A DNA stretch of 64,000 nt from a virus. This document shows, piece after piece, positions 30,856 through 58,344 of this stretch (position 1 is its first letter; each line of letters opens with the position of its first letter). The notes beneath the pieces are model-generated. The model did not search any database. It saw only the letters and a list, made by a program, of their open reading frames with translations, and was not told the DNA's origin. Where the stretch lies: IMG/VR virus record IMGVR_UViG_3300030098_006570, positions 1-64,000 of that record, one strand, 5' to 3'. A program made the translations under genes and the position numbers.

Positions 30856-32613
30856 CTAGACTAGACCACGCACAATTACGAGTCCATACATATCAGGACG
30901 GACCATCTTCTTGGCGTATCGGGTCATCACGCCCTTACGGGGCACGAAGTCTTCAACACCGAAGATCGTAGGTGTGGTCTGCAGCGGCACATAAGGTGCA
31001 TACACATAGCCGCTCTCAAGGAAGCTACTGCCACGTCGACCCACCAGGAGAACCTGACGGGGGAAGTAAGCATCGACAAAGATGTCGAACTTCTTGGAAA
31101 GCGAACCAACCTTGACAGCACCGGCATCGCCGCGCTCATCATCAGCAGTCACATTGGCACGGAAGCCAGCCGTGAACTCAAGAATGTTGGCAACTTCAGG
31201 TCCGCAGACGACGAAGTTGGCAGCACCACGGAGAGTCTTACGGTGGATTGCAGCCGAAACCTCGTTGATTGTCTCAACAAGAGTCTCATACCACTCACTC
31301 ACGTTACCCGTGAAGTCAGCCGTACCAGCGGCCAGAGGCGTACCAGTGTCACGGTTGACAAACTGGCCGGGGTTCCGGCTCCAGTACTTCACACCAGCCC
31401 GAGCACCGATACGAAGGTCCTCAAGGATCTCCTGATCGATTTCAAGAGCGATCTGCTCAGAAAGAATCTGAGTCAGCTCGACTTCGGCGTCAAGGTTGTG
31501 GTAGGCGTTAAGATCCTGTCCTAACTCCGGGGTCCACTTGGCCTTGAGCTTCTTGGTGATCGCCGTGACAGACACGGAATCGACCTTGATGTCGATCTCG
31601 GGAATGTCAGCACTACCTTCGAGTCCCCATGTGGAAGTCGGGAGAACCGCACCAACGGGGGCACCAGCACCAGCAAAGTTGTCGGTGATAGTGAAGTAGA
31701 AGGCGTTACGGCCTGTACCAGCACCAGCAACAGTCGGAACCAGCGAGGACGACAGCTGACCGGGGTTTTGGCCACCAGCATAGTCGACAAGAGTCACAAG
31801 CAGGGTGGTGTTCGGAGCATTCGGATCGCGGCGGGTAAGGCTACGGCGAATGGCTGCCGCGGGAGCACCCGCAATGGCACCCGTGGGAGCCAGCGTAATC
31901 AGATCGTCCGTGTTGAGCTGGGCGTTGACAAGCTGAGCCAAAGGCACAGTAGCAACAGCGAACGTGGTACCACTGGGGAGATCCGCATCGAACTCAAGCA
32001 GGCTCTGCTCAGTCCGCAGAGCAGCTGCGCCGCGGAAGTTCAGAATGCTAGACGTCGAGACAGTACCCGAAGCAACAATCGTAATTCCTGTGCACAGCAG
32101 CGACGAGGTCGGAGACGAGTAGCCGTTGTTGAGAGCATAAGGACCGTCCTCAGAGAACGCACCGGTAAGGTTGACACCACCAGTAAGCTGGGCACCCACC
32201 ACGTTGCCTCCGTAAATGGACGAACCACTGGGGTAGCCATCATCGAAGACACCACGAGCACGACCACCGATCTGACCAGAGATCGTGAAGTCGAGGAAGA
32301 AGATGAGGCCTGAGGGCAGGCTCATCGGCTGGACGCTAACGAGATCGTTGGCGATCAGGTTGCCGAAGACTCGGCGAACGAGGGGGAATGCAACAGCTGC
32401 AAAACCCTCAACGTCACCAGCACTCATGCTGGAAGACTCACGGAGAAGCTCCTTTGCCTGGTTCTCAAGCAATCGGGCCATTCCGTTCCGAAGACCATCA
32501 TCGCTAATTCCCTCAAGCAGTCCGGTGTTCTCCCACTTAGAAATGAGAGCGGCACCTTCGGCCGAGAGGTCACGGTTGACGATTCCTTCGGTTAATTTCT
32601 GTACAATAGACAT
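30856..32613 (-). CDS. Major capsid protein (T4 gp23-like)
   Basis: FPLVRRVF, VSVQPMSLPSGLIF, KLKAKWTPELGQDL, YAPYVPL and GVMTRY motifs; strong AGGAGG SD. Confidence 0.95.
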   Translation of the reverse strand: MSIVQKLTEGIVNRDLSAEGAALISKWENTGLLEGISDDGLRNGMARLLENQAKELLRESSSMSAGDVEGFAAVAFPLVRRVFGNLIANDLVSVQPMSLPSGLIFFLDFTISGQIGGRARGVFDDGYPSGSSIYGGNVVGAQLTGGVNLTGAFSEDGPYALNNGYSSPTSSLLCTGITIVASGTVSTSSILNFRGAAALRTEQSLLEFDADLPSGTTFAVATVPLAQLVNAQLNTDDLITLAPTGAIAGAPAAAIRRSLTRRDPNAPNTTLLVTLVDYAGGQNPGQLSSSLVPTVAGAGTGRNAFYFTITDNFAGAGAPVGAVLPTSTWGLEGSADIPEIDIKVDSVSVTAITKKLKAKWTPELGQDLNAYHNLDAEVELTQILSEQIALEIDQEILEDLRIGARAGVKYWSRNPGQFVNRDTGTPLAAGTADFTGNVSEWYETLVETINEVSAAIHRKTLRGAANFVVCGPEVANILEFTAGFRANVTADDERGDAGAVKVGSLSKKFDIFVDAYFPRQVLLVGRRGSSFLESGYVYAPYVPLQTTPTIFGVEDFVPRKGVMTRYAKKMVRPDMYGLVIVRGLV

Positions 32614-32640
32614 TTTATAACCTCCTATAATTGTTGAATG

Positions 32641-33735
32641 TCATTTATTATTCAAACCTGCTAAACGCAGCATGCGATCCATCTTAGAATCGCGAGTTGC
32701 CGTGTTGTTTTTCTTAGAATTGATCAAAAGCGACGTTGGTCTTGTAACAGCTTCACGAAGTGTTTGTGGACGTGTTCTCTGATCAGGAGTGTTCCCCACT
32801 GCGTTTTGAATTGTTTCATAGATCATCGCTGCTTCTTCAACAGAATTGGCAGTCTGAACAGCTTCGGCAATTTGATTCTTTTGCCGCTCATTCAAGGAGG
32901 TGCTATTCAAAGCCTTGTTTTGATAAACAAGCTTGGCGTTTGCCAAGTTCAACTTATTAAGCTGAGCCTTGGCCTCCATAATGAGAGCACGTAGCTCTCG
33001 GTTGGATTCTTTGAGTTCGGAAATCTTGGCCTCATAAAGGCCGGCGTCGCTCACGACGTCAGGGGCCGTATCGACTTCCTCTTCGATATCTTCTTCTTCC
33101 AGGTGAGCAGCCTGGGCAGCGGCCATGGCATCGTTGTTGGCCTGCTCGACACTGTTGTACGCAGAGTTGACAGAGGACCAGCCCTGGGGGCGCGGGGTCA
33201 TATCTACAACCAACTCTTCAATCAGGTCGGCCAAGAGTTCCTCACTTAAAGGAATCTCTTGGTCTTCTTCTAAGTCCACTCGCGCAGAGGATCCGGCGAG
33301 TTCGGCGGAGTCCTCTTCCGCATCGTTGTCTAGCATTGTGTCAGTAATCTCTTCGGCTAGCTCAAGCGAATCATTGAGATCAGCAGCGCTGGCCTCAACC
33401 CCGGCGGCCTCCTCCTCGGCGATACGAGTCTTCAGGGCATCAAAATCAATTTCAACCAACTCGTCAGCCGCGGGGGCATCCAACTGTTCGCTCTGGAAGC
33501 CGTAAGGCACATCTTCCATAAAAGTTGTGGAAGGGGCAGCTGCGACGCCGTCGTCTTCCTCAAGGCCTCCAAGGCCCATGGCGGCATCGTCGCCCATTTC
33601 CTGTTCTAGCAGGGTGTTGACTGCTGTACGTACCTCGTCCGCATACCGTTCGAGGACGGCCGACTCTGCATTTTTGAGTGCGGCCTCCTTGAGGGCGCCA
33701 GCATCTACGATTGCTTCTTCTAATAAGGAAGACAT
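32641..33735 (-). CDS. Prohead core scaffolding protein
   Basis: Acidic coiled-coil protein immediately upstream of the capsid gene; NAKLVYQNK; ends RMLRLAGL. Confidence 0.8.
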   Translation of the reverse strand: MSSLLEEAIVDAGALKEAALKNAESAVLERYADEVRTAVNTLLEQEMGDDAAMGLGGLEEDDGVAAAPSTTFMEDVPYGFQSEQLDAPAADELVEIDFDALKTRIAEEEAAGVEASAADLNDSLELAEEITDTMLDNDAEEDSAELAGSSARVDLEEDQEIPLSEELLADLIEELVVDMTPRPQGWSSVNSAYNSVEQANNDAMAAAQAAHLEEEDIEEEVDTAPDVVSDAGLYEAKISELKESNRELRALIMEAKAQLNKLNLANAKLVYQNKALNSTSLNERQKNQIAEAVQTANSVEEAAMIYETIQNAVGNTPDQRTRPQTLREAVTRPTSLLINSKKNNTATRDSKMDRMLRLAGLNNK

Positions 33736-33811: not shown

Positions 33812-34780
33812 TTAGTCCCGGACAGCCCTAAGAGTGCTTAGTAATTGATCCAGCTCTTTTTTACTATTTCGAATAACGCTTTTATAATCCTTCTCTGCTT
33901 GATTCATTTCTTCTAAAGTTGATGTGATTTGTGCTTCCAGGGCTGATACTGTACTTAGTTGCGCAGCGGTTCGTTGTGTTGAAAGTGAAACTATTTCATC
34001 CAATAATTGTTGCTGTTGCTTTTTCGTTTCCTCTAGTGCCAGGTCCTTGATTCCGATATGAATATGATTCTCATCCTCTCTAATAAGGAAGTTATCATCA
34101 AACACTAGAGTTTTGAATTGTAGGTGTTGATTACGTCCCTTGGTAACCTTACCCTTGTAAAGGGAAACGCCAGAACCTAAGCTATCACCGCCATTGACCA
34201 CATTCAAGACTTGGCTATTCATGGCGGCAATGTGCCCCATTAAAGAAGTAATTGAAAGGCGGCCGACGCCGCTACGTTGTGAGTTAACTAAAATATGATC
34301 AAACTTGCTGGCATCCGGTAGAGCGGGTGTATCAGAAAAACTTACTGAAAGTCCTGTATCACTCATTCGAAGCAGCGAAGAGGGATCTAGCTTGAGTGAT
34401 AGCTTTTCGTCTACTATTTCAAAGCACGCATTGTTGTGGGCCAGCTGCTCTAAAGGGAGGGCGCCCGAGATGGCGCTAGAGGGGATATTGGTGAGCTTGC
34501 TCCCATCTCCACTAAAGCCGGGTGCCGTCACCTCTTTGGCAACAACAACCGTATCTTTAGCAAGAAGAATGTCTGTAGTGGTATCCAACTTGGCATTGCC
34601 GCCTCCTACCACTAGGCGATTGACCACATTGCTTTTCATTACCTCGATGGCGGGCGGCTTAAGTTCGGTTCCATCCAGAAGCTCAAACTTGTTTGCTGCA
34701 ACACCATCGGTAAAAGTTTTCCGGGCTGTGATGGTTTGCTCAGTGTTGTGGGTGCAAAGATTTTTAGGTGTTGATGCCAT
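33812..34780 (-). CDS. Hypothetical fibre-associated protein
   Basis: FSGDGSKLTNI fibre-like motif; C-terminal coiled coil. Confidence 0.55.
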   Translation of the reverse strand: MASTPKNLCTHNTEQTITARKTFTDGVAANKFELLDGTELKPPAIEVMKSNVVNRLVVGGGNAKLDTTTDILLAKDTVVVAKEVTAPGFSGDGSKLTNIPSSAISGALPLEQLAHNNACFEIVDEKLSLKLDPSSLLRMSDTGLSVSFSDTPALPDASKFDHILVNSQRSGVGRLSITSLMGHIAAMNSQVLNVVNGGDSLGSGVSLYKGKVTKGRNQHLQFKTLVFDDNFLIREDENHIHIGIKDLALEETKKQQQQLLDEIVSLSTQRTAAQLSTVSALEAQITSTLEEMNQAEKDYKSVIRNSKKELDQLLSTLRAVRD

Positions 34781-34818
34781 ATCAGGTGCCTCTCCTTAGG
34801 ACTCTTAGGTTAGTCATC

Positions 34819-37374
34819 TCAGGCCAGCTCCACGTAAGTAGAGCCGGGATTGAAATATATAACCTTAGGTGTAGTGGTGGCATAGCCAATCACTCGCACA
34901 TAATTATTTGAGGCGGTGGGGGCAACACTTTTGAACTTTGCGCTGGAAGTGGACACATAGACGGCACTGCCGGTCTTGTAGTTTCCGACGAAATAAGTCT
35001 CGGCATCCACAAAACCCCGAATTAGCATACCATCACTTGAGGGGTTGCTTCCCAAGGAAATAGCCAAGAGTTGACTCTCTCCCCCACCGCTCGTGGGACT
35101 GCTTCCCGTTTGGGCAGCCGAGGCGGAAGCCCATCCACCCTGATCGTTAAGATAATAGAGGGCCCCCGTTTGTAGGCCGCTGGCTGAGCTAGTGCCAAAA
35201 TAAACCACTTCGCCGGCACCCGTATTGTTTGGAAGTACCGACGGGGCTTTAGATCCGGTATAATGAACCTCTAAGGCAATTTTTGGTTTTTGGCTTTTAC
35301 CAAAAGAGGCGCCGCCATCTATAAGGGTCACATTGGAGACATAAAGGCCTGAGCCCGAAATATTGGCAGAGGCCGACAAGCTCGCATAAACATCTACATT
35401 GCCGTTAGTATTGACCCGGAGCATCGGGGAGCCACTGTTATCCTGGAAGTCATAGCCAGTGAAGTTGGGCTGAGTACCCTTAAATTGGAGAAGGCCGCCG
35501 GCATTGCGTCCCATCTTATAATGATAAGTTCCTCCACTTCCCACCCGCAACTGATCTCCGGCGGCCGAACCCAGCACACTCAATGCTGCAGCCGAGCTGG
35601 CTGTATTTACCGTGATGGCGCTTGAGGCACTCACATGGGTAACAGTGAGTGCAGCGCCCGAGATAATCCCGTCATGGCCGAGGTAGGCAAGAAGACCGTC
35701 CTCAGCTGCATTAAGGACCGAAATGGAAGCGGTCTTCGCCATAATACCGGTGAAGTTGTTGCCGGCGGGGCCTTTAGTCCGCACCTGCAGGAAACTCCCG
35801 CCGCCTAGGCCGTCGTCGTTATATGTAAAGTCGGCCGATGACGTCAGTTGTCCGTTACCGTCCAGATCGGCGAACACGATGCCACTGCTGGTTAGGCTCG
35901 ACACATAAGCAGTAGAGCCATAAAAAGCAGAGGCCGAAATATTATGAGACGCAGTGAGACTTCCGGAGACAATCGCTAGGCCTTTGCTAACTCCATCGAT
36001 GGTAGAACCAGTGGGATCGAGAATGAAAGACTTGTGTATAACTCCCATGGAGCCGGCCGTTGTAAGCATCGTAACGCCCAACAGGCCTTCGGGATAAATA
36101 TCAATAGCTGTCTTCCCATTATAACTACTGCTCCGGAAATAGGCATAACTGCTCCCTCGGTTGCGCAGATTGATTCCGCCGACGCCCCCAACGTCCGAGC
36201 CATCGAGGATAATTTTACCAGCAGGACTCAAAGTAAAGTCCGCCGAACTACTCAAAATGGACGAGGAGATATAGGTGGGATAACTCCTCGACGCGTTGGA
36301 TCCCAACTTAACAAAGGGAAGCTGGGCGCCTGACATTATCAATTGACCGGATCCTGAAATAGACCCGCTCATCATAACTTTATCGCCCAGGAAGCTGAAA
36401 TTGCCGGAGCCGCTGAAGGCGCCCGCATTGTTAAACTGAATGTTCGTGTTCGAGCCGCCGGGTGTACCGCCGCCTCCCACGTTCTTCAAATACTGGCCGT
36501 CGCCATAAAAAGCAGAGGCTGATACATGGCCAGAAGCGGTGATATGAGAAGAGGCCGAAATAGTGCCGTCATGACCTAGGTATACCAGCAGCCCAGTTTC
36601 AGCAGCATTGAGAACGGAAATAGAAGCGGTCTTCGCCATAATACCTGTAAAGTTATTAGCTCCTGGGCCTTTTGTACGAACCTGTAGGAACTTACCGCCA
36701 CCTATACCATCATCACTGTACGTAAATTCGGCCGAGGAAGTAAGTTTTCCGTTGGGGCCTGCAGCGACGACCCCGCTGCTGGTGAGACTTGACACATAAG
36801 CGTTGGAACCATAAAAAGCAGAGGCCGAAAGATTGGCCGAGGCAGAAACTTGAGTGTTAGCATTCAAGATTATGTTGTCGCCATTGATATCGAGATTAGT
36901 GCCGTTATTTGTAATTTTGTAAGTTTTGGCCGCATCAAAGAAAATAGAATTTCCAGAGGGCACGAACACATTAGATGCTGTAAGATTAGCTGATGCGGAT
37001 AGGGCCCCGCTCACTATCATCTTGGAGCCGGTCCATTTAAGACTATTGGTGCCTCCGAGGGTACCTCCATTATTAAACTGGATATTAGTGGTGGCCCCGG
37101 CGGCAGAACTAGTCGCGATGCCGTGGAGGTATTGACCATCGCCATAGAAAGCTGAAGCCGAGACATGGCCAGATGCTGTGATATTAGAAGAGGCAGAGAT
37201 CTGCCCTAAAACTTGAACCAGCGTATCCGAGGCGGAAACGTTGAGTACTTTAACTCCACCTACACCAAAGGAAATAAAGTCATTTCCCCAGTCTATGTAT
37301 GTATCCTGATTAGGATCGTCCTCGGCGTAAATATCGCCTCTAAATATTCTACCTTTTGCTGAACCGTATGCCAT
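34819..37374 (-). CDS. Ser/Gly-rich fibre/decoration protein with internal duplication
   Basis: Repeated ISAS..SASAFYGDG and TNIQFNN motifs; a ~95-aa block is duplicated. Confidence 0.7.
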   Translation of the reverse strand: MAYGSAKGRIFRGDIYAEDDPNQDTYIDWGNDFISFGVGGVKVLNVSASDTLVQVLGQISASSNITASGHVSASAFYGDGQYLHGIATSSAAGATTNIQFNNGGTLGGTNSLKWTGSKMIVSGALSASANLTASNVFVPSGNSIFFDAAKTYKITNNGTNLDINGDNIILNANTQVSASANLSASAFYGSNAYVSSLTSSGVVAAGPNGKLTSSAEFTYSDDGIGGGKFLQVRTKGPGANNFTGIMAKTASISVLNAAETGLLVYLGHDGTISASSHITASGHVSASAFYGDGQYLKNVGGGGTPGGSNTNIQFNNAGAFSGSGNFSFLGDKVMMSGSISGSGQLIMSGAQLPFVKLGSNASRSYPTYISSSILSSSADFTLSPAGKIILDGSDVGGVGGINLRNRGSSYAYFRSSSYNGKTAIDIYPEGLLGVTMLTTAGSMGVIHKSFILDPTGSTIDGVSKGLAIVSGSLTASHNISASAFYGSTAYVSSLTSSGIVFADLDGNGQLTSSADFTYNDDGLGGGSFLQVRTKGPAGNNFTGIMAKTASISVLNAAEDGLLAYLGHDGIISGAALTVTHVSASSAITVNTASSAAALSVLGSAAGDQLRVGSGGTYHYKMGRNAGGLLQFKGTQPNFTGYDFQDNSGSPMLRVNTNGNVDVYASLSASANISGSGLYVSNVTLIDGGASFGKSQKPKIALEVHYTGSKAPSVLPNNTGAGEVVYFGTSSASGLQTGALYYLNDQGGWASASAAQTGSSPTSGGGESQLLAISLGSNPSSDGMLIRGFVDAETYFVGNYKTGSAVYVSTSSAKFKSVAPTASNNYVRVIGYATTTPKVIYFNPGSTYVELA

Positions 37375-37431
37375 TGATTATTCTCCGGGTATAATAAATA
37401 GTATCCAATCTAATCTATGAATGTTTAAAGT

Positions 37432-37466
37432 AAAAAGGGCGGGTACCCCGAAAGATACCCACCCTT
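37432..37466 (-). terminator. Intrinsic terminator
   Basis: AAGGGTGGGTATC-TTTCGG-GGTACCCGCCCTT followed by TTT. Confidence 0.7.
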
Positions 37467-37511
37467 AATATTTATCATCACCAAGGTGATGTCTCCGAAG
37501 AGACCTCTATC

Positions 37512-39374
37512 CTAGTAGATGCTCCACTTATCGGAAGCGACATACATCAAGTTGACCGCACCGTCATCGGAGACAATATCCACGGAATCTTCGCCGTCGA
37601 TAGTCTGCGTTCCAGCATGATCAACCACGATCTTGAAGCCACCAAGGCTACTCGGAGCCTTCACGTTAACAACCTGACCAATGGTCGGGCTGGCTGGAAG
37701 GGTCCATGTGCGATTAGCAGTAAGCGTGGTAGTACCATAGTTGAAACCAACCTGGAGAGTACCCGCCGCATCGCCGATGCCCTGGACGTTGGCGACAATG
37801 TCACCAGTCACAGTACCGTAAATGTTAGCAGCCTGAATATCGATCAGGTTGCCCGACTCATCACGAGCAACAAAAATGTCACCAGATGCGGATGCATCAC
37901 CAGTACCGTTCGTCAGGTATACCCACTCGAAATAGTCGGAGTTATCAGCAGCGTAAGGCATGCGGATGGCAGAGCCAGCAGCGTTTGCCTTGCTGCTTGA
38001 ACCGGAGCCGATTGTTACAGTCTTGTCTTTAATCACCAATTCATCGGTGTTGACCGAAGTGATGGTTCCAGCAACGTAGAAGTTACCACTAGCACTCATG
38101 TTTCCGTTGATAGTCAGACCAGCAAAAGTCGGGCTGTCACTGGTACCGAGACCAAGACTCGTACGAGCAGTGGCGCCGCTCTCATAAGCAAAGGCGCCTG
38201 CGCCAGTAGCAACAATGAATTCACCATCAGCAGAAGGAGCGCCGAGAGTGTCAAGATCTTCGAGGACCCCGTCAACAGCAACAGTGACCGAACCACCAAG
38301 GGACACAGCACCCAGAGCAGCCATACCAGCACCCTGTGTGAGAGTGATGGAGCTGTTAGCAAGCTTGGCGTTAGCGATCGAACCAGCGAGGTTATCGTTG
38401 GTGATTGAGTTATCAGGCAAGAAAACGTTACCAGAAACATTCAAGCGCGCGCTCGAACCCACACGGAGTTCTCCGGTAGTGTCCAAATAAAAATTCGAAC
38501 CAGAGATCGACCCCTCCCGAGTAATCGAGGCGGACGCGGCCGTCGAGCCGCCGGACTCATAAAACGACATATCAGTACCCCATACAGTGAAACCCTGGTA
38601 GTCGTCAGCCACATCGTGAGAATGAATCTCAATACCCGCCGAAGCAGAGATAAGCAACGGCGTAGCGTCGGATCCGCCTTGGCCACTGTTCAACATTGCA
38701 TAATACGTATCACCATGGTCGGTCTCGAAGTAACCCAGGGACATGTGGTCAGAAATAACTACATCCTTACCTGCCTTCGAGTTAGAGCCGGAGATGTGAG
38801 CCTCTTTAATGCTCTTGGCCGCACTACCGAGTGAGGTCTGACCGTCAGCATCAGGGATAATATCGGAGCCGACGCCGGGGACGATATTGCCCGCGACAGA
38901 CAGAGCACCAGAGCCCGAAAGGGTGGTGAACTTACCAGCAGCCTGTGAGCTGGCTCCAACAGTAGTTCCATCAATTGCACCACTGTCAACATTAATGTTG
39001 GTGATGGCCTGGCTGTTAGCATCAAGTGCTGCACCAAGCTGATCAGCCTGAAGGCTGTCAATGTATGCTACACCGTCAATGTACAGATCCTTGAACTCAG
39101 CGCCAGAAGCACCAAGGTCAGTGCCAGCATCTGATTGCGGCTTGAGTGCCGTACCGTTGACGACCTGATTAGCGCCCATAAGGACAAGATCGTTGCTGCC
39201 GTTGGAGCTAATCTTTACTGAGCCACCGTCTCCGTTAAAATAGACAACACCGTCGTTGTTAAGAACAACATCGTTGGCTACCTCAACATCAGCCGAGCCA
39301 GAAAGGTCGGCGCCGCCGACTAGTTTAATATCACCTGGGGACTGGAATGTTCCCAATTGAAATTTATATGCCAT
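37512..39374 (-). CDS. Fibre/decoration protein
   Basis: Gly/Ser/Ala-rich; C-terminal TLPASP..GQ..VK...TIDG...W domain; AGGAGG SD. Confidence 0.7.
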   Translation of the reverse strand: MAYKFQLGTFQSPGDIKLVGGADLSGSADVEVANDVVLNNDGVVYFNGDGGSVKISSNGSNDLVLMGANQVVNGTALKPQSDAGTDLGASGAEFKDLYIDGVAYIDSLQADQLGAALDANSQAITNINVDSGAIDGTTVGASSQAAGKFTTLSGSGALSVAGNIVPGVGSDIIPDADGQTSLGSAAKSIKEAHISGSNSKAGKDVVISDHMSLGYFETDHGDTYYAMLNSGQGGSDATPLLISASAGIEIHSHDVADDYQGFTVWGTDMSFYESGGSTAASASITREGSISGSNFYLDTTGELRVGSSARLNVSGNVFLPDNSITNDNLAGSIANAKLANSSITLTQGAGMAALGAVSLGGSVTVAVDGVLEDLDTLGAPSADGEFIVATGAGAFAYESGATARTSLGLGTSDSPTFAGLTINGNMSASGNFYVAGTITSVNTDELVIKDKTVTIGSGSSSKANAAGSAIRMPYAADNSDYFEWVYLTNGTGDASASGDIFVARDESGNLIDIQAANIYGTVTGDIVANVQGIGDAAGTLQVGFNYGTTTLTANRTWTLPASPTIGQVVNVKAPSSLGGFKIVVDHAGTQTIDGEDSVDIVSDDGAVNLMYVASDKWSIY

Positions 39375-39532
39375 TATAAAATCCTCCTATAGATTATGGC
39401 GAAACGTGTAAGAAATTAGAAGAAAGTTACGAAGTGGGCGCATCGAGGCGCAATGGACCATAATATATCCACATTCGTTTCTGATACAATTAGACGTGCG
39501 GAGAGAGAAAAGCTTTTAATATTTTTTATTTT

Positions 39533-40300
39533 TTAGTAGACGTACCAATTACTACCATCGGTATACATATGAATCGCGCCATAAGGCGATTGAATAGTGA
39601 GACTGGATGTATTATCAATTAGCTGGCTGGCTGATGCTTTAAGGGTGATGGGAGTTGTAGGGTCGGCACTTCCCACTTCGTCCTTTACTACATATGTCTG
39701 ACCTCCCACGCATTTTGTAGCATCAAATAAAATCTCAAGGGATGCCGCTCTTACCCCTAAATAATACTCATTGGCGGCAGCCGTATGATTTGTAGTAATG
39801 GGGGTCCTAGCATGGACCAGTCCAGCTTTGATCTGCATTGCTTTATTTGTAAAATCATAAAGCACCAGAGCGCTTCCCGAGATCCCCCCCGAGCCTGTTT
39901 GAAACTGAAGAGCACCCACGGGGCCCTGGGCGCTGGCGGAGCCTCCTCCCCCACTGGCCGTAATCCCAGTAAGATAGCGACCGTCGCCATAGAAAAAGGC
40001 AGCGGAAATATTATTGCTCGCTGATATAAGACCAGTGTTGTCAAGGAGAACCTTGGTGATTCCCCCATTGAGAATGGAAAGGTTAGCCCCATCAAAAGTG
40101 AGATCAGCCTCACCTCGCAGAGTCTTTCCGGTGGTATTAGTAAAGGTTATTAAACGATTGTCGTCAGGGGTGACGACATATTCGGGAATTTGAGAAGTAG
40201 GGAAGGCGAGTTCGGACCCATCTCCCGAAAAAGTGCCCGTGAGAGCAAGGCTGGCGGAGTGGAGTTGCTTGATTGTTCCTGATAATGCATTGTACGCCAT
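39533..40300 (-). CDS. Fibre/decoration protein (paralog)
   Basis: SAQGP.GALQF motif; same C-terminal domain as 37512. Confidence 0.65.
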   Translation of the reverse strand: MAYNALSGTIKQLHSASLALTGTFSGDGSELAFPTSQIPEYVVTPDDNRLITFTNTTGKTLRGEADLTFDGANLSILNGGITKVLLDNTGLISASNNISAAFFYGDGRYLTGITASGGGGSASAQGPVGALQFQTGSGGISGSALVLYDFTNKAMQIKAGLVHARTPITTNHTAAANEYYLGVRAASLEILFDATKCVGGQTYVVKDEVGSADPTTPITLKASASQLIDNTSSLTIQSPYGAIHMYTDGSNWYVY

Positions 40301-40317
40301 CTCGTCTCATAACTCGT

Positions 40318-41073
40318 CTAGATAATCCACCAAGCACTGGTGCCGTCACAAACATAGGTTTCAGATGCATGGTCCGATAAGAGCTTTTGCCACGGGTCTC
40401 CATCGATCGTATCGCCTCCAGAGGCGCTCACCGTTAAATCGGGAGCGGCAGTTCCGGCTTTCACCACCACTACCCGGCCGATTCCGGCGGTTGTAGCTGC
40501 AGGCAACGTGACAGTTGTTGTGGATGCCACGCTCACTACCACAAAATAATCATCAGATGAAATGCTCGTGTCGGTATTGGTGGTACGGTAATTTACCGCC
40601 TGAGATCCACTAACTGTGAGAGCTGCGTACGGATTGGTAACTCCAATTCCCAGTCGCGGCATAGAGGCTGCATCGCCCGGAGGCCCGGAGGATGTAAGAG
40701 TAAATGCATTAGCCGTAACGCCTATTCTTTTAACAGCGAGGCTTCCAGTAAATGTATGCCAGTCTTCATTGGTATCGCCAAATTTAGAATCCCCACTGGA
40801 GGATAAGAAAGTAATGGTATGATTGATAACATCAAAATTACGGGCAACAATATTTCCACTAACTAGAAGATTGCCAGTGAGGATAAGCTGCGATGAGGCA
40901 GTTAGGTATAAGAGTTGCGAAGACCCACTAATACCACTTCCACCAGGGACCGAGGATCCTGAATGGAACTGTAAAGACCCTGTTGGCCCCTGGGCACTAG
41001 CTGTCCCGGGGTGAGAATGACTCCCCCCCGAAGAGCAACTAACATAAGCCCATCCGTTGTATTGTAGCGGCAC
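40318..41073 (-). CDS. Fibre/decoration protein (paralog)
   Basis: SAQGPTGSLQF and SSGDSKFGD..D.HTFTGS motifs; same C-terminal domain. Confidence 0.65.
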   Translation of the reverse strand: MPLQYNGWAYVSCSSGGSHSHPGTASAQGPTGSLQFHSGSSVPGGSGISGSSQLLYLTASSQLILTGNLLVSGNIVARNFDVINHTITFLSSSGDSKFGDTNEDWHTFTGSLAVKRIGVTANAFTLTSSGPPGDAASMPRLGIGVTNPYAALTVSGSQAVNYRTTNTDTSISSDDYFVVVSVASTTTVTLPAATTAGIGRVVVVKAGTAAPDLTVSASGGDTIDGDPWQKLLSDHASETYVCDGTSAWWII

Positions 41074-41091
41074 CGCGCGTAACCCTCCTTG

Positions 41092-41526
41092 TTAGCCGAC
41101 GCCTGCTGAACCGGACCAGTTGGGACCTTGAATTCCTGCACCACCTAACTGTACCACACTACCAGACGCATAATCCAGCTGCTCTACAGGAATGGAGGTG
41201 AGCCCAGCGGCGACGAAAAGACTTTTCGGGTCTTGTCTGGATCCACTAACATAAAGGCGCGTAAGCTTCAGATCTACCGGACCAAAGGTGCCCGAAACTG
41301 CATCGAGGGGCCAACCGTGTGATTCCAACAGGATTCCGGCTTCGGAAAAACCCACGATAGCCAGACTTCCACCCATGTTTCTTACTGAGACCCAGCTGGT
41401 TACAGCCGGGAATTTAATCTCAACAACCCCATCGATAGGGCTTATGCTTGCAGATACCCACGGCTTCCCAGATACTTGGTATGAGGCCGCGCTTCCTAGT
41501 CCCGGGGTATAATTATATGTCGACAT
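41092..41526 (-). CDS. Hypothetical virion protein
   Basis: PGLGSAASYQVSGKPW; late motif upstream. Confidence 0.6.
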   Translation of the reverse strand: MSTYNYTPGLGSAASYQVSGKPWVSASISPIDGVVEIKFPAVTSWVSVRNMGGSLAIVGFSEAGILLESHGWPLDAVSGTFGPVDLKLTRLYVSGSRQDPKSLFVAAGLTSIPVEQLDYASGSVVQLGGAGIQGPNWSGSAGVG

Positions 41527-41567: not shown

Positions 41568-41789
41568 TTATCTAAACATTTTCCTTTGTCGCTTTCTTTC
41601 CAGCTTAAGGCGCTCGCGTTGGGCTTTCTGGCTTTTCAGTTTTTTCTTGACAGAGGGCTTTACGTAATGATCCGTTCGGGCTCGATAAGTTTCTATCACT
41701 CGATCACGTTTACATTTTTTGATAAACCGTCGTATGAGTCGTTCCGAACTCTCTCCGCGACGTAAATCTACTCTCACATTAGTTGCCAC
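41568..41789 (-). CDS. rpsU: Ribosomal protein bS21 homolog
   Basis: VDLRRGESSERLIRRFIKKCKR..VIE..R....YVKPSVKKK; 73 aa and basic. Confidence 0.85.
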   Translation of the reverse strand: MATNVRVDLRRGESSERLIRRFIKKCKRDRVIETYRARTDHYVKPSVKKKLKSQKAQRERLKLERKRQRKMFR

Positions 41790-41796
41790 AATTCAC

Positions 41797-42246
41797 CTAC
41801 TTTCTCTCTTTTACTTCGTTCATGTGGGCACTCCAATTGCGCCCCACGGAACCAAATAAATTGCTAATATCCACACCAGCATCGTCAGGCGCGTGGCCCG
41901 CCATAGGGTTGGCTTGCTGTTGCGGTGACCCTTGGGCAGGGGCCGGGGTTGTCCCTTCAAAGAGATCGACCCCATTAAAAGCGCCGCCGCCAATGGCGGC
42001 CATCAACTTCTTCTTATGTTGTTTTAGCTTGTTACCCTGCTCCTCGCTAAACGCATTTCGTCGCATGCGCTCTTTTACGGGATCAGCCTTAGGCGCGGCT
42101 TGACGCTCTACAATGGGCTGGGGGGTGTTCATTCCTTTGACGACCTCAGCTATAATACCCGAGATAAGTCCGTCTTCCATGAGGGATTCTTTAATGCACT
42201 CATTAACCAGAGGCTTGAGGATTTTCTTTAGTTCTGACTTTTTCAT
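41797..42246 (-). CDS. Hypothetical protein (MKKSELKKILK leader)
   Basis: 149 aa, coupled to the upstream gene. Confidence 0.7.
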   Translation of the reverse strand: MKKSELKKILKPLVNECIKESLMEDGLISGIIAEVVKGMNTPQPIVERQAAPKADPVKERMRRNAFSEEQGNKLKQHKKKLMAAIGGGAFNGVDLFEGTTPAPAQGSPQQQANPMAGHAPDDAGVDISNLFGSVGRNWSAHMNEVKERK

Positions 42247-43856
42247 TTTATACCTGCTAATACTTTCATTCTATCAAGTTCTTTATGTTCGGCTAGAGCT
42301 GGATTCATTTTTTCAGCTTTGGCGGCACTCACCACCTCTTGCCAGGCACGTTGGAGGTTTTCCACTTTGTTCCCCAGTCCCGGAACTTTGCCCAACTGTG
42401 CAATCATCCATGGGATCATGGGTTCACCCTCATCAGTCTTTTCGTTGATGAGTTTTTTCAATAAATCATCTGGGATAAGTTCCACGATCCCTGCGGCTCC
42501 TTGTTCGAGAACAGTCGCGGCTCGCGCATTTTTTAGGTACTTTGAGGCTGTTCGAGCTTTTCCGGCATGGCCGGCCTTGACCAACTTTCGCAGAGTTCCA
42601 AACTTCTTGGCACGGGCGGCCGCGACGGCGCCTTTGGCACCCTTACCAAGCTTACCAGCTTTCATGGCCTCCCCGACTATAGGAGTAAGAGAAACCAAAT
42701 CAAATAATGCCCACCCATACATGCCTCGACTCGTATTTAAAATAAGGCTGGCAATCGTAGCCGGCTTACTTACTGCCATGGCAGGAGGCCAAAGCCCCAC
42801 GGCACCTAAGACGTCCAGGCCGGCCTGAACTTTGTCGAGAGCAGCGTCCCATTTGCTATCTTCCTTTGCCAATATGTCCTTGGCGAGGGCTATCATTTTC
42901 TGCTGAGCTTTCTGCGCGAGGCGGGCTACCTCGTTGGGGTGTATTCCGTATTCGTCCGGACCGCGGGCGGCGGCGTTCTGATCATCGAGCAGTTCCTCGC
43001 GAGCCTCATAAGCATCTTTGGGGCTCAGCCCGAAGATGTCGGCACGCTTGTCAAGGAGCTGATTGAAGGTTTCGATGTCAATTCTTATGGTCCCCCACTT
43101 AAAGTCGTTCGGCTCAACGGAAGAGAAAAATTCCTCTAGAGTCTCGTCGTCCAAGGATAAGAAAAACTCACCAAAGTCGACTGCTTCTTCTTCAGGATCT
43201 GCTACAGTGAGGATTGAAGGGATGTCTTCCTCTTCATCTTCAAGGTCTGGAGCAGCAACTGGTTCCGTTACAATGGTGTCTGTCTGGTCTTCTTGATCCG
43301 GATCCGGGCCCCGGACTGGTTCTGCTACAATGGTGTCTGTTTGGTCTTCTTCATCTGGAGCAGCCACTGGTTCTGCTACAATGGTGTCTGTCTGGTCTTC
43401 GTCTGGTTCGGGATCAGCCACAGTGAGGATCGAGGGAATGTTATCAGCTATACTTTTAACGACCGGACTAATATCCAAGGCGCTACGATTAAACACTGCC
43501 AACAACTGTTTAAAAACTTTGGGGTTCTTTTGGGCTATGGTATCTAAAAATACTTTGAGCTTGGGAGCATTTTGGTGTGTAACCACCACATCTTCCTCAC
43601 CGGTGAAAAGGCGCTCATTTTCTTTAACAACAAAGCCTTCGTCTTCAAGAACGCCAGTAAGTTCATCTACAATAGCTTCGCGTTGTGAGGGTGTGAGCTT
43701 TGCTCCGGACATTTTAGACGCATCGTTCAGTCCCTTAATGATGGTCACTAGTTCGGATGCCGGGTATTCTTTGGTTGCCTCTTTCTTGCCGAAACCAAAG
43801 ATTTCATTAATCTCTGCCTCGATCAGACGATCCAATTCAGCCCGGGAAATTCTCAT
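42243..43856 (-). CDS. Hypothetical protein with acidic repeats, toxin-linker-like hydrophobic hairpin and scaffold-like C-terminus
   Basis: DQTDTIV[AT]EPV x3, IPSILTVADPE x2, GLDVLGAVG...LVSLTPIVG; ends RMKVLAGIK. Confidence 0.7.
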   Translation of the reverse strand: MRISRAELDRLIEAEINEIFGFGKKEATKEYPASELVTIIKGLNDASKMSGAKLTPSQREAIVDELTGVLEDEGFVVKENERLFTGEEDVVVTHQNAPKLKVFLDTIAQKNPKVFKQLLAVFNRSALDISPVVKSIADNIPSILTVADPEPDEDQTDTIVAEPVAAPDEEDQTDTIVAEPVRGPDPDQEDQTDTIVTEPVAAPDLEDEEEDIPSILTVADPEEEAVDFGEFFLSLDDETLEEFFSSVEPNDFKWGTIRIDIETFNQLLDKRADIFGLSPKDAYEAREELLDDQNAAARGPDEYGIHPNEVARLAQKAQQKMIALAKDILAKEDSKWDAALDKVQAGLDVLGAVGLWPPAMAVSKPATIASLILNTSRGMYGWALFDLVSLTPIVGEAMKAGKLGKGAKGAVAAARAKKFGTLRKLVKAGHAGKARTASKYLKNARAATVLEQGAAGIVELIPDDLLKKLINEKTDEGEPMIPWMIAQLGKVPGLGNKVENLQRAWQEVVSAAKAEKMNPALAEHKELDRMKVLAGIK

Positions 43857-43858
43857 TA

Positions 43859-44458
43859 TTAACCCTCTAAAATACTATCCATCAAGTTGATGATTTTGTT
43901 AGTCTTGGCTACATGTTCATTCATGAGCTTATTTTCAGAAAGGGCCATAAAGGCGTTGGGGGTTGACGGCTCGGATACAATGTCAAAACAGATAAGCTGA
44001 AAGTCATCCTCGACAATCGTCTTGCCCATACGCTCGGTAACCGATCCCATCCCCCGCGAGGAGATACCGATCTTCACTCCCGACTCCACCAAGGCGCGCA
44101 AGATTTGGCCAGAGGGAGTCTTGAGAACTTTGCACTTACCCATTACGGAGGCACCATCCATCCATACCTCAGTTACCATGTGGGAAACGTTGGCAAGATT
44201 GATGATGGAAGAATCAGGGTGGTCTAACTCGCCGAGAGCACGGTTATCTTCAACAATCTGCTTGTACCTTTTTACTTCGCGCTCCATGATTCCTCTAGGA
44301 TACACTCGTCCATTTCCGTTCTGGACATCTGCTTCCTGCAGCTTGCCAGTTAACATCATACCACCATTACGCACAAAGGTCTTCTCGGCTTCCGTCAGTA
44401 AATCTTGACAGACGCCGCCTTCGCATAGTTCATAGAATTCTCGTAATAGTTTAGCCAT
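43859..44458 (-). CDS. Prohead core protease (T4 gp21-like)
   Basis: NGNGRVYP, ALGELDHP, VSH, GISSRGMGS and DIVSEPSTPNA motifs. Confidence 0.93.
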   Translation of the reverse strand: MAKLLREFYELCEGGVCQDLLTEAEKTFVRNGGMMLTGKLQEADVQNGNGRVYPRGIMEREVKRYKQIVEDNRALGELDHPDSSIINLANVSHMVTEVWMDGASVMGKCKVLKTPSGQILRALVESGVKIGISSRGMGSVTERMGKTIVEDDFQLICFDIVSEPSTPNAFMALSENKLMNEHVAKTNKIINLMDSILEG

Positions 44459-46247: not shown

Positions 46248-47049
46248 GACCAAGTAGCTCCTTGCTGAGATCCTGAACCTTCAGGACCTTGCCTAAATCT
46301 TTCTCTTCGAACTCCCGCTTGCGGAAGCTATCTAGATACTCCACCACTCCCTCGATCTTTTCTTTGATGAGTCCTTCCTCTTGTGTTTCCAAATTCTCGG
46401 TAAGGACGGACTTGAGGCGCCCCAATTCTTCATTGAGATAAAGCTTCATCTCGAACCCCTGATCGGCAAAGCTAGTAATGTAGTGCGTCAGAAGCGTCTT
46501 CTGTTCGTGAAGAAGGTTGTCGTACTTTTGATTGAATTTCTTGATAAAAGAATGATAAGTAAGATTGTCGATGGGCTGCAATGTTTCTTGGGGAGAATCG
46601 ATCTTCTCTGCCATTCGGTCTACAAGAGCTTGCTCAAAAAGAACTCTTTTCTTCAGCGCTGTTTTGGAGCTAAAGATCCCCTTGACAGAGGCCAATGACT
46701 TAAAATTGGGCACAAAGGTTGCCCAAACTTCTGTTCCCAGCTGCTTGTTAATGACTGCAATAAGACGAGATTGCGCATCAAACAATGCACTCTCATCCAG
46801 CTTTTTGTGGGCCTCCTTGGTTTCAGTCATCAGACGGCTCGCGACCTTCTCTTGGATATTGCGAGTTTCTAGAAGGGTCCGATATAGGCGCAACTCCTCT
46901 CCCAAAACAGTATTTGGACCCAGATGCTCTTGTAAGATCTTGAGGATAAGAGCCTTTCGTTCGGCATCATTATCCACAATGGCTTTGGTAAGAGTGCGAG
47001 TGAGGGTCTCGTAAACAAATGCAATATTTCTTTTCTTATTATGCTTCAT
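46240..47049 (-). CDS. Hypothetical head-operon protein
   Basis: MKHNKKRN...; overlaps the end of the portal gene. Confidence 0.75.
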   Translation of the reverse strand: MKHNKKRNIAFVYETLTRTLTKAIVDNDAERKALILKILQEHLGPNTVLGEELRLYRTLLETRNIQEKVASRLMTETKEAHKKLDESALFDAQSRLIAVINKQLGTEVWATFVPNFKSLASVKGIFSSKTALKKRVLFEQALVDRMAEKIDSPQETLQPIDNLTYHSFIKKFNQKYDNLLHEQKTLLTHYITSFADQGFEMKLYLNEELGRLKSVLTENLETQEEGLIKEKIEGVVEYLDSFRKREFEEKDLGKVLKVQDLSKELLGHD

Positions 47050-49048
47050 GTGTTTCTGCCTCTTTCGTTTCTAACTGCTCCACTAATCGGCGTACCTTCC
47101 TAGTGTCTTCAATTAAAGTAGTTTCTGCACTAGTATAAATAGAAGCTTTTTGCTCTTCGAGGCCAACTAAAGATTTGAACTCTAGTTTGCCAATGCCCAA
47201 ATCTTTGACATTAGTCTTGCCCGGTGCGCGAGAGCGCGCGGTTCCAAGGCGGGGGGCTTCCGGCAAAGCTGTATTTTTAATATGACGACTGGTAGGACCT
47301 GAACGCTCCCGTCGGCGCCGGTCACCGCCGCGCCTCTGAACTGTCTTATAGGAACTCTTTTCATAGTGATGTACGTCGTCACCCTCTGTCATATCTTCAC
47401 GGCGTCCCGGTGTTGTCAAAAGAACGTCGTCTTCGCCCCCAGGCTCTCCGCCAGCTGGTTCGGCGCCTGCGTCGCCACCAAGGTCACCGCCTCCGAGGTC
47501 ACCACCCAAGTCTCCACCAAGGTCACCGCCTCCCAGATCGCCGCCCAAGTCGCCGCCCAAGTCTCCGCCGGCCAACGCCTCCTCAGCTCCCTGCTCAGTA
47601 ACAGCCTCAAGTGCCTGCTGATACTTACGATCATGAAAAGTTTCTCGCTGATTGCGGAGATACTCATCATCGGAAAGTCCCAGAATATTTTGGGCCACCC
47701 AGCGCTTGCTGAACGTACCTTCCGGAACCGCATTGGCTGTGTCAAATTTGGTGCGCAGATATTCTAGCTGCTGCAGCTCTGCAAGACGCGAAGGGTTGTT
47801 GAGAGTAAGGTCAAAACTCAATAAGTCTTCGCCCCGGAAACCTAGGGTGTATAAATGAACCACGGCGATCTTCTCTAGCTCGCTAATGAATGAGCGCTGA
47901 AGTCTCTGAATCGTGCGTGCGAACCGAATATCTTTTTGAGCCAAAGTAGTCTTGTCCTCGGTATCTCCCTCTAGGTTGGTAAGATACGACTGTGGGACCT
48001 TAATTGCTGCGAACATCTTGTCGCGCATATACTTTACATCCTCAATGTCGTCCAAAGACTTGGCGCCTGGGAGAGACGTAATATCTGAACCAACTCCTCC
48101 CCGCATTGGAATAAAGTAATCCTCTTCAAGTGATAGTGGATTGTAGCGAAGATCCACACGACCAGTTGTAGCATCCACTAACTGGTTTCTCTTCATCTCC
48201 GTTTTTACTTTTTCCATATACTGAGCGACTTCTTGCGGAGGGATATTTCCTACATCAATCTTGAAGATCCGTCGTTCGGGCGCACGAACCACACGATAAG
48301 CAATCATTGCATCTTCAAGTAAAGTAACTTGGCGCCAAATTCTGCGGGCTGGGTCAAGGACTGAGGTACCGTAGGGAGCATGACGATCATTGCCCAAAAT
48401 TCTGAAGTGTGCAATCTGCCAATTCTCGAAGGTCATACCAGCTGCGTTCCACTGATACTGAACATAGTTAGGATTCGTTGAGTCTTGCCCCTCAAGGCGC
48501 TCAACTTCATTGTTCGGAAGGCCAATTACTGATGTAACCCCCATCTGCTCGTCAACATCCAAATAGAGGAACAAGTCTCCATACTTACACATGGAGCGGG
48601 CCCAACCAAAAGCATTGAAATCCAAATTGAGAACCTCATAGAAAAGAGAATTTAGAATAGTCTTGATTTCAAGGTTCAAGCAAGAAATATTGAGCATCTT
48701 ATCATACTCATTAGATGTCGTCATTTCATCGGCATAGATATCTAACGCCGATGCGATCTCAGGCATATACTCCATCTGTTCAAAATCTACATAGCGTTCG
48801 GCGCGGTTCTGATTACGGAAGGCAGCAGAAGTAAACAGATTATAGTTCTGCGACATGTTGTTGTCGGCACGACGGAACTCTTGGCCGCTCATGGAACGGA
48901 ACCGATAACGATACTTATCTAAATCAGCGCGGCGCTCCTGGCGAGCTTGCTGGGCGCGGAAGTTAACAATAGGTCCCGATAAAAGACGAGTTAGGCGCTT
49001 GAATAGCGGCGCGGCTGGGTTGCGAGTGTTGCGAGTGTTATTGGCCAT
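47039..49048 (-). CDS. Portal protein (T4 gp20-like)
   Basis: ALDIYADE, RAPERRIFKIDVGN, EDYFIP.RGG and TLAQKDIRFART motifs. Confidence 0.93.
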   Translation of the reverse strand: MANNTRNTRNPAAPLFKRLTRLLSGPIVNFRAQQARQERRADLDKYRYRFRSMSGQEFRRADNNMSQNYNLFTSAAFRNQNRAERYVDFEQMEYMPEIASALDIYADEMTTSNEYDKMLNISCLNLEIKTILNSLFYEVLNLDFNAFGWARSMCKYGDLFLYLDVDEQMGVTSVIGLPNNEVERLEGQDSTNPNYVQYQWNAAGMTFENWQIAHFRILGNDRHAPYGTSVLDPARRIWRQVTLLEDAMIAYRVVRAPERRIFKIDVGNIPPQEVAQYMEKVKTEMKRNQLVDATTGRVDLRYNPLSLEEDYFIPMRGGVGSDITSLPGAKSLDDIEDVKYMRDKMFAAIKVPQSYLTNLEGDTEDKTTLAQKDIRFARTIQRLQRSFISELEKIAVVHLYTLGFRGEDLLSFDLTLNNPSRLAELQQLEYLRTKFDTANAVPEGTFSKRWVAQNILGLSDDEYLRNQRETFHDRKYQQALEAVTEQGAEEALAGGDLGGDLGGDLGGGDLGGDLGGDLGGGDLGGDAGAEPAGGEPGGEDDVLLTTPGRREDMTEGDDVHHYEKSSYKTVQRRGGDRRRRERSGPTSRHIKNTALPEAPRLGTARSRAPGKTNVKDLGIGKLEFKSLVGLEEQKASIYTSAETTLIEDTRKVRRLVEQLETKEAETHEA
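47471..47575 (-). repeat. Tandem GGDL(G) coding repeats in portal C-terminus
   Basis: GGDLGGDLGGDLGGGDLGGDLGGDLGGGDLGGD. Confidence 0.85.
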
Positions 49049-57208: not shown

Positions 57209-57658
57209 TTAAAAGTTTCTTGGATAATCGCGCTTAATGGCGTGAACACGTTCGCCCTTGGCTAGCCGGCCTTTGATCCTATCTACATCACCCTGATGGA
57301 GGCGACCTTTTGACTTTTCAAATTCTGCTTTCCGAATAAGATCCTGAGCCTCAGCGTTGCTCTCCTCCATCGGAGCGTACATCGGGTTGGCCAGGATGTG
57401 ACGAAGCGAAGCAACCATGTCGGCGTCCAAACTCATACTGAGATCTTCCAACTCATCGCGGGTCATCTTGCCCAGGGCCTCTCTAGCCTTTATGAGAATG
57501 AGAAGCCGCTCTTCGGGGGATGTGAAGGCCCGGTCGCGAGTCTCCTCATCCTCCGGTTCGGCGATATCTTCAATGCCAGCACCGGGGCGGTCGGCGCCGC
57601 GCATGGCATCCATCTCTTCCTTGATAATCTTTTTAAGTCTTTGTTTCGTGATTTTCAT
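57209..57658 (-). CDS. Hypothetical protein, MKITKQRLKKIIKEE leader
   Basis: ORF track; paralogous leader. Confidence 0.75.
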   Translation of the reverse strand: MKITKQRLKKIIKEEMDAMRGADRPGAGIEDIAEPEDEETRDRAFTSPEERLLILIKAREALGKMTRDELEDLSMSLDADMVASLRHILANPMYAPMEESNAEAQDLIRKAEFEKSKGRLHQGDVDRIKGRLAKGERVHAIKRDYPRNF

Positions 57659-57987
57659 GGCTTCTTGAACCTCTCCTTGTCGGATCTATAATCTCCAGCA
57701 GAACGCTTGCGCCCGATCCTTTTCAGTCCCTGCCGCATTCTTTTGATCTTCTCTGGTGTAATTTGTGGTAATTCTAGGGTTGCTTCTTCGTCCTCTTTCT
57801 CGGACTCTTCCTTCATGGGGCCGCTGCACATCTCTTCGGCCTCTGCTTTGGACAGTCCCTCAGGACGGTCGGCATCTTCGTCAGCCATGGCGCACATGTA
57901 GTTACGCTGCTTTTCGGAGTGAACTTCAACCACCGAAGCAATCTCTTCTTTGATAATCTGGTGTAATCTTGTTTTACTAATCTTCAT
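57655..57987 (-). CDS. Hypothetical protein, MKISKTRLHQIIKEE leader
   Basis: ORF track; ATGA coupling. Confidence 0.75.
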   Translation of the reverse strand: MKISKTRLHQIIKEEIASVVEVHSEKQRNYMCAMADEDADRPEGLSKAEAEEMCSGPMKEESEKEDEEATLELPQITPEKIKRMRQGLKRIGRKRSAGDYRSDKERFKKP

Positions 57988-58109
57988 TTCTTGGTCTCCA
58001 TTGTACCTAAGAGGTCTTCGCCCATGTATCGAATCTCATAAACCATTACTGCTCTCAAATAGAGTATTTCTTGAATCATGTTTGTTAGGTGGGCTCCTGA
58101 TATCTTCAT
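57984..58109 (-). CDS. Small hypothetical protein, degenerate leader MKISGAHLTNMIQE
   Basis: Manual translation (41 aa); coupled by ATGA to the next gene. Confidence 0.5.
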   Translation of the reverse strand: MKISGAHLTNMIQEILYLRAVMVYEIRYMGEDLLGTMETKK

Positions 58110-58110
58110 T

Positions 58111-58344
58111 TTATAGAATATTTTTTAGCGCGTCGTTCAGGAAGTCTCGGAGATTCTCTATAGCTACATACTGCACTGCTTCCCGAATAGCACCATCAAG
58201 CTCTTCAAGAACACCTATTTCGGTTTGGCTTTTGCCGTATCTTTCGGCAGGAGTTCGCATATCGGGCTCTTCCTCTTCTGTTACGGCACCGAGTCCTATC
58301 TCTTCCTTGATGATTTCTCGTAATCTTTGTTTGGTGATTTTCAT
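58111..58344 (-). CDS. Hypothetical protein, MKITKQRLREIIKEE leader
   Basis: Start reassigned to 58344 after AGGAG; late motif at 58378-58387. Confidence 0.75.
   Translation of the reverse strand: MKITKQRLREIIKEEIGLGAVTEEEEPDMRTPAERYGKSQTEIGVLEELDGAIREAVQYVAIENLRDFLNDALKNIL

Follow-up and report, generated by a model that had tools for sequence, protein, structure and literature searches.

A scaffold-type C-terminal peptide on an accessory head-module protein of a T4-related phage, a candidate portable prohead tag

The stretch of DNA analysed here (the window) comprises 64,000 nucleotides, the first 64 kb of a single contig of 148,084 bp from a marine T4-related phage (IMG/VR record IMGVR_UViG_3300030098_006570), and carries a head module in which an accessory protein of 537 amino acids (aa) ends in the same short peptide as the scaffolding protein. 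The head genes all lie on the minus strand in a T4-like order, as judged from Pfam and PHROG matches and from position. The large terminase gene (49052-50638, -) is followed by a gp20-like portal gene (47039-49048, -; PF07230, 5.2e-81), four small open reading frames (ORFs) and the gene for a gp21-like prohead serine protease (Peptidase_S77; 43859..44458, -; PF03420, 3.6e-32; PHROG 207, 1.6e-55). The gene for the 537-aa protein (42243..43856, -) comes directly after the protease gene, separated from it by 2 nt, and its stop codon is overlapped by the ATG of a 149-aa gene (41797..42246, -; ATGA). The gp22-like scaffolding protein (32641..33735, -), assigned from its position, acidic coiled-coil composition and [LI]xE sites, is encoded immediately upstream of the gp23-like major capsid protein (30856..32613, -; PF07068, 8.1e-71; PHROG 138), so that one phage possesses a T4-type set of gp21-like protease, gp22-like scaffold and gp23-like capsid protein. 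The capsid protein is 35-48% identical to its nearest relatives, which are those of Microcystis phage Mel-JY01, Flavobacterium phage immuto, Rhodothermus phage RM378 and two huge uncultured phages.

The scaffold ends ..KMDRMLRLAGLNNK and the 537-aa protein, the candidate cargo, ends ..ELDRMKVLAGIK. Both C-termini were confirmed as given in the initial annotation, made from the sequence alone, and the motif that they share lies at the ends of two real head-module genes. The tail of the 537-aa protein is R529-K537 (RMKVLAGIK; 42246..42272, -), within positions 42243-42290, which hold the stop codon and last 15 codons of the ORF; that of the scaffold is R354-K364 (RMLRLAGLNNK; 32644..32676, -). 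Translated in six frames, the window contains the pattern R[MLIV]..LAG[ILVM] exactly two times, and so does the whole genome; each copy closes one of these genes, at a distance from the stop of 1 residue in one case and 3 in the other. The pair of tails scored 30 in a comparison of 12,720 pairs of C-terminal 15-mers, where the 99.9th percentile was 27, and tied for the top score. Because three other C-terminal pairs in the same genome also scored 30, the match within the single genome is suggestive but not decisive, and it is conservation in relatives that settles whether it is real. Alignment of the scaffold and cargo profiles with hhalign paired only 13 tail columns (E 0.021), in agreement with the initial description of the two proteins as otherwise unrelated. 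At the DNA level the tails of the two genes have just TTAGCAGGT in common and the other codons differ; recent gene conversion between the two tails was rejected on this ground.

Conservation of the motif in homologues had been named at the outset as one point on which the idea could fail, and the tail was found to be kept by the cargo family and by the scaffolds. The 537-aa family consists of 42 clusters, mostly from marine metagenomes, which retain the N-terminal leader, an N-terminal domain of ~130 residues and the last nine residues; the middle differs in length and content, giving a range of 330 to 599 aa. Across 39 family members with differing middles there is no variation at R529, K531, L533, A534 and G535, and hardly any at M530. 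Relatives of the scaffold numbered 1608 at 90% clustering, and a scaffold profile search returned 4165 representatives at 50% clustering. The scaffold tip is invariant in 120 of 121 close scaffolds, the exception being one truncated entry, and a tip of the form R-x-x-x-LAG-[IL] is kept in 149 of the 150 best of the 4165 representatives, some of which have exactly the ending of a cargo protein, RWKVLAGI or RMKVLAGL. Among cultured phages, the LAG tip is also found on the scaffold encoded upstream of the capsid gene in Mel-JY01, immuto and RM378; two huge phages have weaker variants of it, and it is not present in gp22 of T4 or of cyanophage S-SKS1. This distribution marks the scaffold tip as an old and strongly selected feature of one large gp23-type branch, with T4 itself outside. 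A scan of IMG/VR with a DNA pattern for R-M-K-x-L-A-G-I-K gave 119 matches, 117 of them no more than 6 residues from a stop. The real motif is h-x-R-[MW]-x-x-L-A-G-[ILV], in which the hydrophobic residue two places before R is conserved. Of the DRMxxLAG termini that the initial annotation proposed to seek in relatives, R[MW]xxLAG proved conserved and terminal; the preceding D varies, with G, N, K and D all occurring. The scaffold gene of immuto (immuto26A_204, L003:10725-11966) is annotated as a 'DNA polymerase phi-like protein' and is a gp22-like scaffold by its position, N-terminus and LAG tip.

Eighty related loci were gathered via the protease, and in 64 of these a complete gene was present directly after the protease gene. 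This gene is hypervariable, differing from genome to genome: 25 of the 64 end in the tail (7 of them also having the N-terminal leader), 15 have only the leader, 12 belong to the 149-aa family, in which case the slot is empty, and the remaining 12 are something else. The tail-bearing slot proteins are 142-891 aa in length and fall into at least 8 groups that are unrelated by BLAST once the tails are removed. The core motif was found 153 times in the 7,902 ORFs of the loci, in 149 cases within 8 residues of the C-terminus, twice near the N-terminus and twice internally. Inspection by eye of six scaffold and cargo pairs, each from one genome, revealed no pattern of co-variation between the tails. 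Tail-bearing proteins of 563 and 439 aa (..RMKHLAGIKPA.) are also encoded outside any recognisable head module (L109:8303-9994 and L163:10865-12184), upstream of large ORFs of ~890-930 aa; a tail-bearing gene therefore need not adjoin the protease gene.

The tail is coupled to the cutting rule of the protease. T4 gp21 cuts after L/I-x-E (PMC9026906). In the 537-aa protein L521-A522-E523 (42288..42296, -) constitutes a candidate prohead-protease site 5 residues before the tail, with the predicted cut after E, between LAE and HK. A site of the form [LIMVF]xE lies 0-6 residues before the R of the motif in 62 of 64 non-redundant tail-bearing proteins, in every unrelated group, compared with 19% of 902 ORFs without a tail, taken at the equivalent position. 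The scaffold contains 22 [LI]xE sites as opposed to 7.1 ± 2.3 in shuffled sequences, a three-fold enrichment which suggests that the homologous protease keeps the L/I-x-E rule and shreds the scaffold. The 537-aa protein has six such sites where 8.3 are expected, two in the N-terminal leader, one before the tail and three elsewhere. Enrichment in the scaffold and none in the cargo fits a scaffold that would be degraded and a cargo that would be trimmed. No L-x-E stands as close to the tail in the scaffold as in the cargo; an invariant L-x-E-A lies 26 residues upstream of the scaffold tail (L326-x-E328, then A329; 32752..32760, -), a candidate cut freeing the last 36 residues, and an alignment of 17 scaffolds, the most distant at 31% identity, shows no change at L326, E328 or A329.

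In two proteins of immuto, immuto26A_41 (L227:2062-2457) and immuto26A_188 (L228:2176-2640), the LAG motif is N-terminal, at residues ~10-18, and I-T-E follows at once; these are small proteins encoded among nucleotide-metabolism genes, outside the head module. Similarly, a 532-aa ORF (L119:6907-8505) starts with the LAG motif, followed by L-T-E. The predicted cut would part the peptide from the body of the protein irrespective of whether it is N- or C-terminal. C-terminal processing of both Alt and gp21 has been reported in T4 (PMC9026906). T4 gp21 (L001:449-1087) ends ..LAE followed by AMKKAL, placing an L-x-E six residues from its C-terminus, with a slight resemblance to the LAG tail; this L-x-E fits the reported processing of gp21.

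In the 537-aa protein the N-terminal leader is followed by the conserved N-terminal domain of ~130 aa, tandem repeats of acidic character, a helical body that varies and includes a hydrophobic stretch, and finally the tail. The leader (residues 1-18; 43803..43856, -) ends in LIE and INE sites and is conserved across the family. It is related to the common leader, MKI[TS]K.RL..IIKEE, of a cassette of small ORFs elsewhere in the window (57209..58344, -), which upholds the earlier claim that the protein also has an N-terminal leader; the leader of the cassette is a candidate for a second address tag of this phage. The huge phage LR756508 (L086:511-2832) has six small ORFs in a row with a leader of the form M-x-x-x-x-x-L-[KR]-x-[IL]-[IV]-x-E-E, like that of the cassette, and the N-terminal leader system therefore extends to huge phages. 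Three acidic tandem repeats (DQTDTIV[AT]EPV..) and two copies of IPSILTVADPE are encoded at 43170-43440 (-), and the copy number of the repeats differs among relatives. The protein matched no Pfam or PHROG family. An AlphaFold2 model built from 39 sequences was all helical with a mean predicted local distance difference test (pLDDT) score of 61; a Foldseek search of the PDB with this model gave nothing at E <= 0.001, and the Atlas nothing usable. Three distant family members, P0042, P0040 and P0033, have a FliG C-terminal domain (3e-10 in P0042, above the Pfam cut-off) where the 537-aa protein has a diverged helical module. A polymorphic-toxin pre-toxin (PT-TG) identity for the body was considered and rejected; PF14449 gave no match up to E = 5, and the sole sign of it was an Atlas feature score of 0.80, below the level of a lead.

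Several neighbouring features of the module deserve description. A gene for ribosomal protein bS21 lies inside the head operon (41568-41789, -; PF01165, 1.7e-12), and Mel-JY01 has a bS21 gene in the corresponding position. Between the protease region and the scaffold, ~8 kb (33812-41526, -) are occupied by ORFs of 144-851 aa encoding beta-rich paralogues; this block is missing in immuto and much shorter in Mel-JY01. Within it, the ORFs of 251, 255 and 620 aa have similar aromatic-rich C-terminal endings and are paralogous by appearance, and those of 251 and 255 aa have weak PHROG matches, one of them to a 'baseplate protein' family. The scaffold and capsid genes share a reading frame, with a TGA and eight sense codons between them (32614-32643, -). 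In 12 related loci the two genes likewise stand in one frame, with just one kind of stop codon between them, and nothing pointed to read-through.

Our favoured reading, held with moderate confidence, is that the terminal h-x-R-[MW]-x-x-L-A-G-[ILV] peptide is a portable tag for incorporation into the prohead, taken over from the scaffold tip and removed by cleavage at maturation. Unrelated accessory proteins whose genes occupy the hypervariable slot after the prohead protease gene, the 537-aa protein among them, would have acquired copies of the tag. By imitating the scaffold tip, a tagged protein would dock wherever that tip binds in the assembling head, most likely on the inner face or the N-arm of the major capsid protein. 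Once the head is assembled, the gp21-like protease would cut at the L-x-E 4-5 residues upstream of the tail and in the N-terminal leader, freeing the body inside the head, and the tag would be discarded. The motif, its strictly terminal position, its conservation, its spread over unrelated proteins and its coupling to L-x-E are observed in this scheme, and docking, binding partner, cleavage and packaging are inferred. The initial annotation had read the tail as a packaging signal mimicking the scaffold; a conserved and portable terminal module with an adjoining protease-type site is indeed present and supports this reading in part, and packaging itself is predicted.

Scaffold C-termini bind the coat protein in P22, phi29 and the herpesviruses. 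In the AlphaFold2 models of both proteins the helix stops at the Leu that precedes A-G and a short hook remains, with low confidence (pLDDT below 60). The major capsid protein is the favoured partner because all of the many copies of the scaffold keep the tip and because the scaffold C-terminus of 80alpha likewise binds coat protein (PMC5644958). The 537-aa protein is probably cargo rather than a second core protein since its gene is missing in many relatives and it has few internal cutting sites. Searches of PDB sequences with the scaffold tip gave no match, and no description of the motif was found in literature searches.

Several points weigh against the tag as proposed. Tail binding, cleavage and packaging are all predictions from sequence. 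A fold of scaffold with capsid protein, obtained by reading through the in-frame genes with translation table 4 and 12 paired rows, had a mean pLDDT of 42.6 and gave an uninformative model. Given that the tails are alike only in TTAGCAGGT at the DNA level, their copying would be old or convergent. Searches of ten cargo bodies against Pfam and PHROGs found no effector domains, just stray CBM_14 and WW matches, and a tblastn search with the 537-aa protein gave no match among the cultured phages of the phage collection. Finally, the large terminase (TerL) of five lineages of Drexlerviridae, T1-like siphoviruses of enterobacteria, ends in DDP-x-x-RM[KL]RLAG[ILM] followed by 1-5 residues. These terminases, from ESP2949-1 (L208:9046-10614), K50PH164C1, Sfin-3, KLPN1 and 2862IV (L207, L209, L210, L211), are 49-100% identical, and the motif is constant where the region just upstream of it diverges. 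Their ending is nearly that of the scaffold tip, including the preceding D-P. As TerL stays outside the head, the partner of the peptide need not be a capsid protein; either the portal is the partner, or the peptide is a docking helix of general use that arose by convergence. A search of PDB sequences with the TerL of ESP2949-1 gave no match.

That the peptide is a docking label whose partner is the portal, or another part of the core such as the protease, with tagged proteins held in low copy at the portal vertex, must accordingly be weighed. In lambda, T3 and P22 the C-terminal tail of TerL attaches to the portal; this and the near-scaffold tip of the Drexlerviridae terminases count towards this explanation. 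So too does the nucleation of T4 scaffolds on the portal (PMC9546572). Conversely, the tip is carried by every copy of the scaffold, hundreds per head, whereas the portal offers 12 sites, and TerL docks outside the head whereas the scaffold is inside. The portals also differ, that of the T1-like phages being of family PF06381 and that of the T4-like phages of PF07230; moreover, the large terminase of the window phage has no LAG tail and the protease-scaffold protein of ESP2949-1 does not end in the motif. Such a partner appears unlikely. The distribution of the peptide over proteins with different destinations, namely scaffold, cargo and TerL, could otherwise be explained were it a handle for a host factor, either a DnaK-type chaperone or an adaptor of an AAA+ protease, and not for a phage component. 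A hydrophobic stretch with basic flanks and ending in Gly is loosely like DnaK model peptides. Degenerate chaperone sites would not be expected to keep R, L, A and G nearly invariant or to lie strictly at a terminus, however, and coupling to a site for the phage protease argues for a role inside the head, making a host handle very improbable.

The slot itself invites a different explanation, that the 537-aa protein is a second structural protein of the core or scaffold, like T4 gp67 or gp68, which co-assembles via its tail and is then degraded. Its gene occupies the position of T4 gene 22, just after that of the protease, and the protein is acidic and helical with disordered repeats. Yet many close relatives lack the gene and have the 149-aa gene directly after the protease gene, the bodies encoded in the slot are unrelated to each other, and, apart from the tail, the protein is not homologous to the scaffold. 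Cutting sites, enriched in the scaffold (22 against 7.1), are not enriched in the 537-aa protein (6 against 8.3), and we consider a core function distinctly improbable. A chance match or a functionless remnant would accord with a pair of tails that only ties for the best score within one genome, but conservation across thousands of homologues and the terminal position contradict chance, the probability of which we regard as negligible.

The structural basis of the hold of T4-type scaffolds on the shell, and of the entry of additional proteins, is still unresolved (PMC9546572). The short, invariant scaffold tip is a precisely defined peptide for which a site can be sought on the capsid protein or the portal. 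Through its recurrence on fast-changing proteins it marks out a large pool of candidate head-packaged, and probably injected, proteins in abundant ocean phages, for most of which the function is not known, and the pairing of the proposed tag with an L-x-E site points to a compact cassette of two parts with which proteins might be loaded into phage heads. Beyond the portable tag, the presence of the same peptide on T1-like terminases, an unexpected link that is testable in phages of E. coli, raises the idea that a single conserved feature of the proheads of tailed phages recognises the peptide as a general docking label, irrespective of its position; this wider proposal is speculative and, in our judgement, unlikely to hold. 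If true, a single label would serve T4-related scaffolds, cargo proteins that bear it at either terminus with a release site, and the TerL of unrelated T1-like siphoviruses. Proteins of any kind could then be loaded or docked by a tag of 10-12 residues, which would also lead to the scaffold contact site of T4-type heads, long unresolved.

The portable tag may be compared with several known systems. The closest in arrangement is that of phage 80alpha and the satellite SaPI1, in which the 80alpha scaffold and CpmB have in common a C-terminal helix and hook that binds one site on the capsid protein beside its N-arm (PMC5644958). As in the window phage, two otherwise different proteins have the same ending, there the RIIK motif (PDB 6B0X and 6B23; PMC5644958), formed by ~16 residues as a short amphipathic helix and a hook, and the second protein imitates the scaffold tip. 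CpmB, however, is an alternative scaffold of the satellite, belongs to a single family and resizes the capsid, whereas the LAG tail is found on many unrelated accessory proteins of the phage itself. The LAG tail further differs in being paired with a protease site and in its sequence (R-[MW]-x-x-LAG-h), and its binding is only predicted.

In T4, a capsid targeting sequence (CTS) is present on the internal proteins IPI-III and on Alt and is removed by gp21 (PMC9026906). The likeness extends to a short terminal peptide on diverse proteins, a protease of gp21 type, the L/I-x-E rule and a body that is released inside the head, and the 537-aa protein also has an N-terminal leader in the style of the CTS. 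An L/I-x-E between tag and body, the mark of CTS cargo, is found here at the level of sequence. The CTS, however, consists of the first ~10 residues of the protein, does not copy the scaffold tip and is considered to bind the core (PMC9026906), whereas the LAG peptide is C-terminal in 149 of 153 instances.

Two further systems share individual elements with the proposed tag. The herpesvirus scaffold UL26.5 and protease UL26 have a common C-terminal capsid-binding tail that is cut at the M site, so that, as proposed here, a second protein enters the procapsid on the C-terminal tail of the scaffold and a maturation cut just upstream releases it. The herpesvirus tail arises from nested in-frame genes, whereas the scaffold and 537-aa genes are separate, unrelated and 9.6 kb apart. 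The cargo-loading peptides of encapsulins and the C-terminal targeting tail of the HK97 protease demonstrate that a short C-terminal peptide suffices to load a shell of HK97 fold; in neither is there imitation of a scaffold or a coupled release site, and the sequences are different. The system proposed here is a combination of two of these principles, scaffold-tip mimicry and a targeting tag released by a protease.

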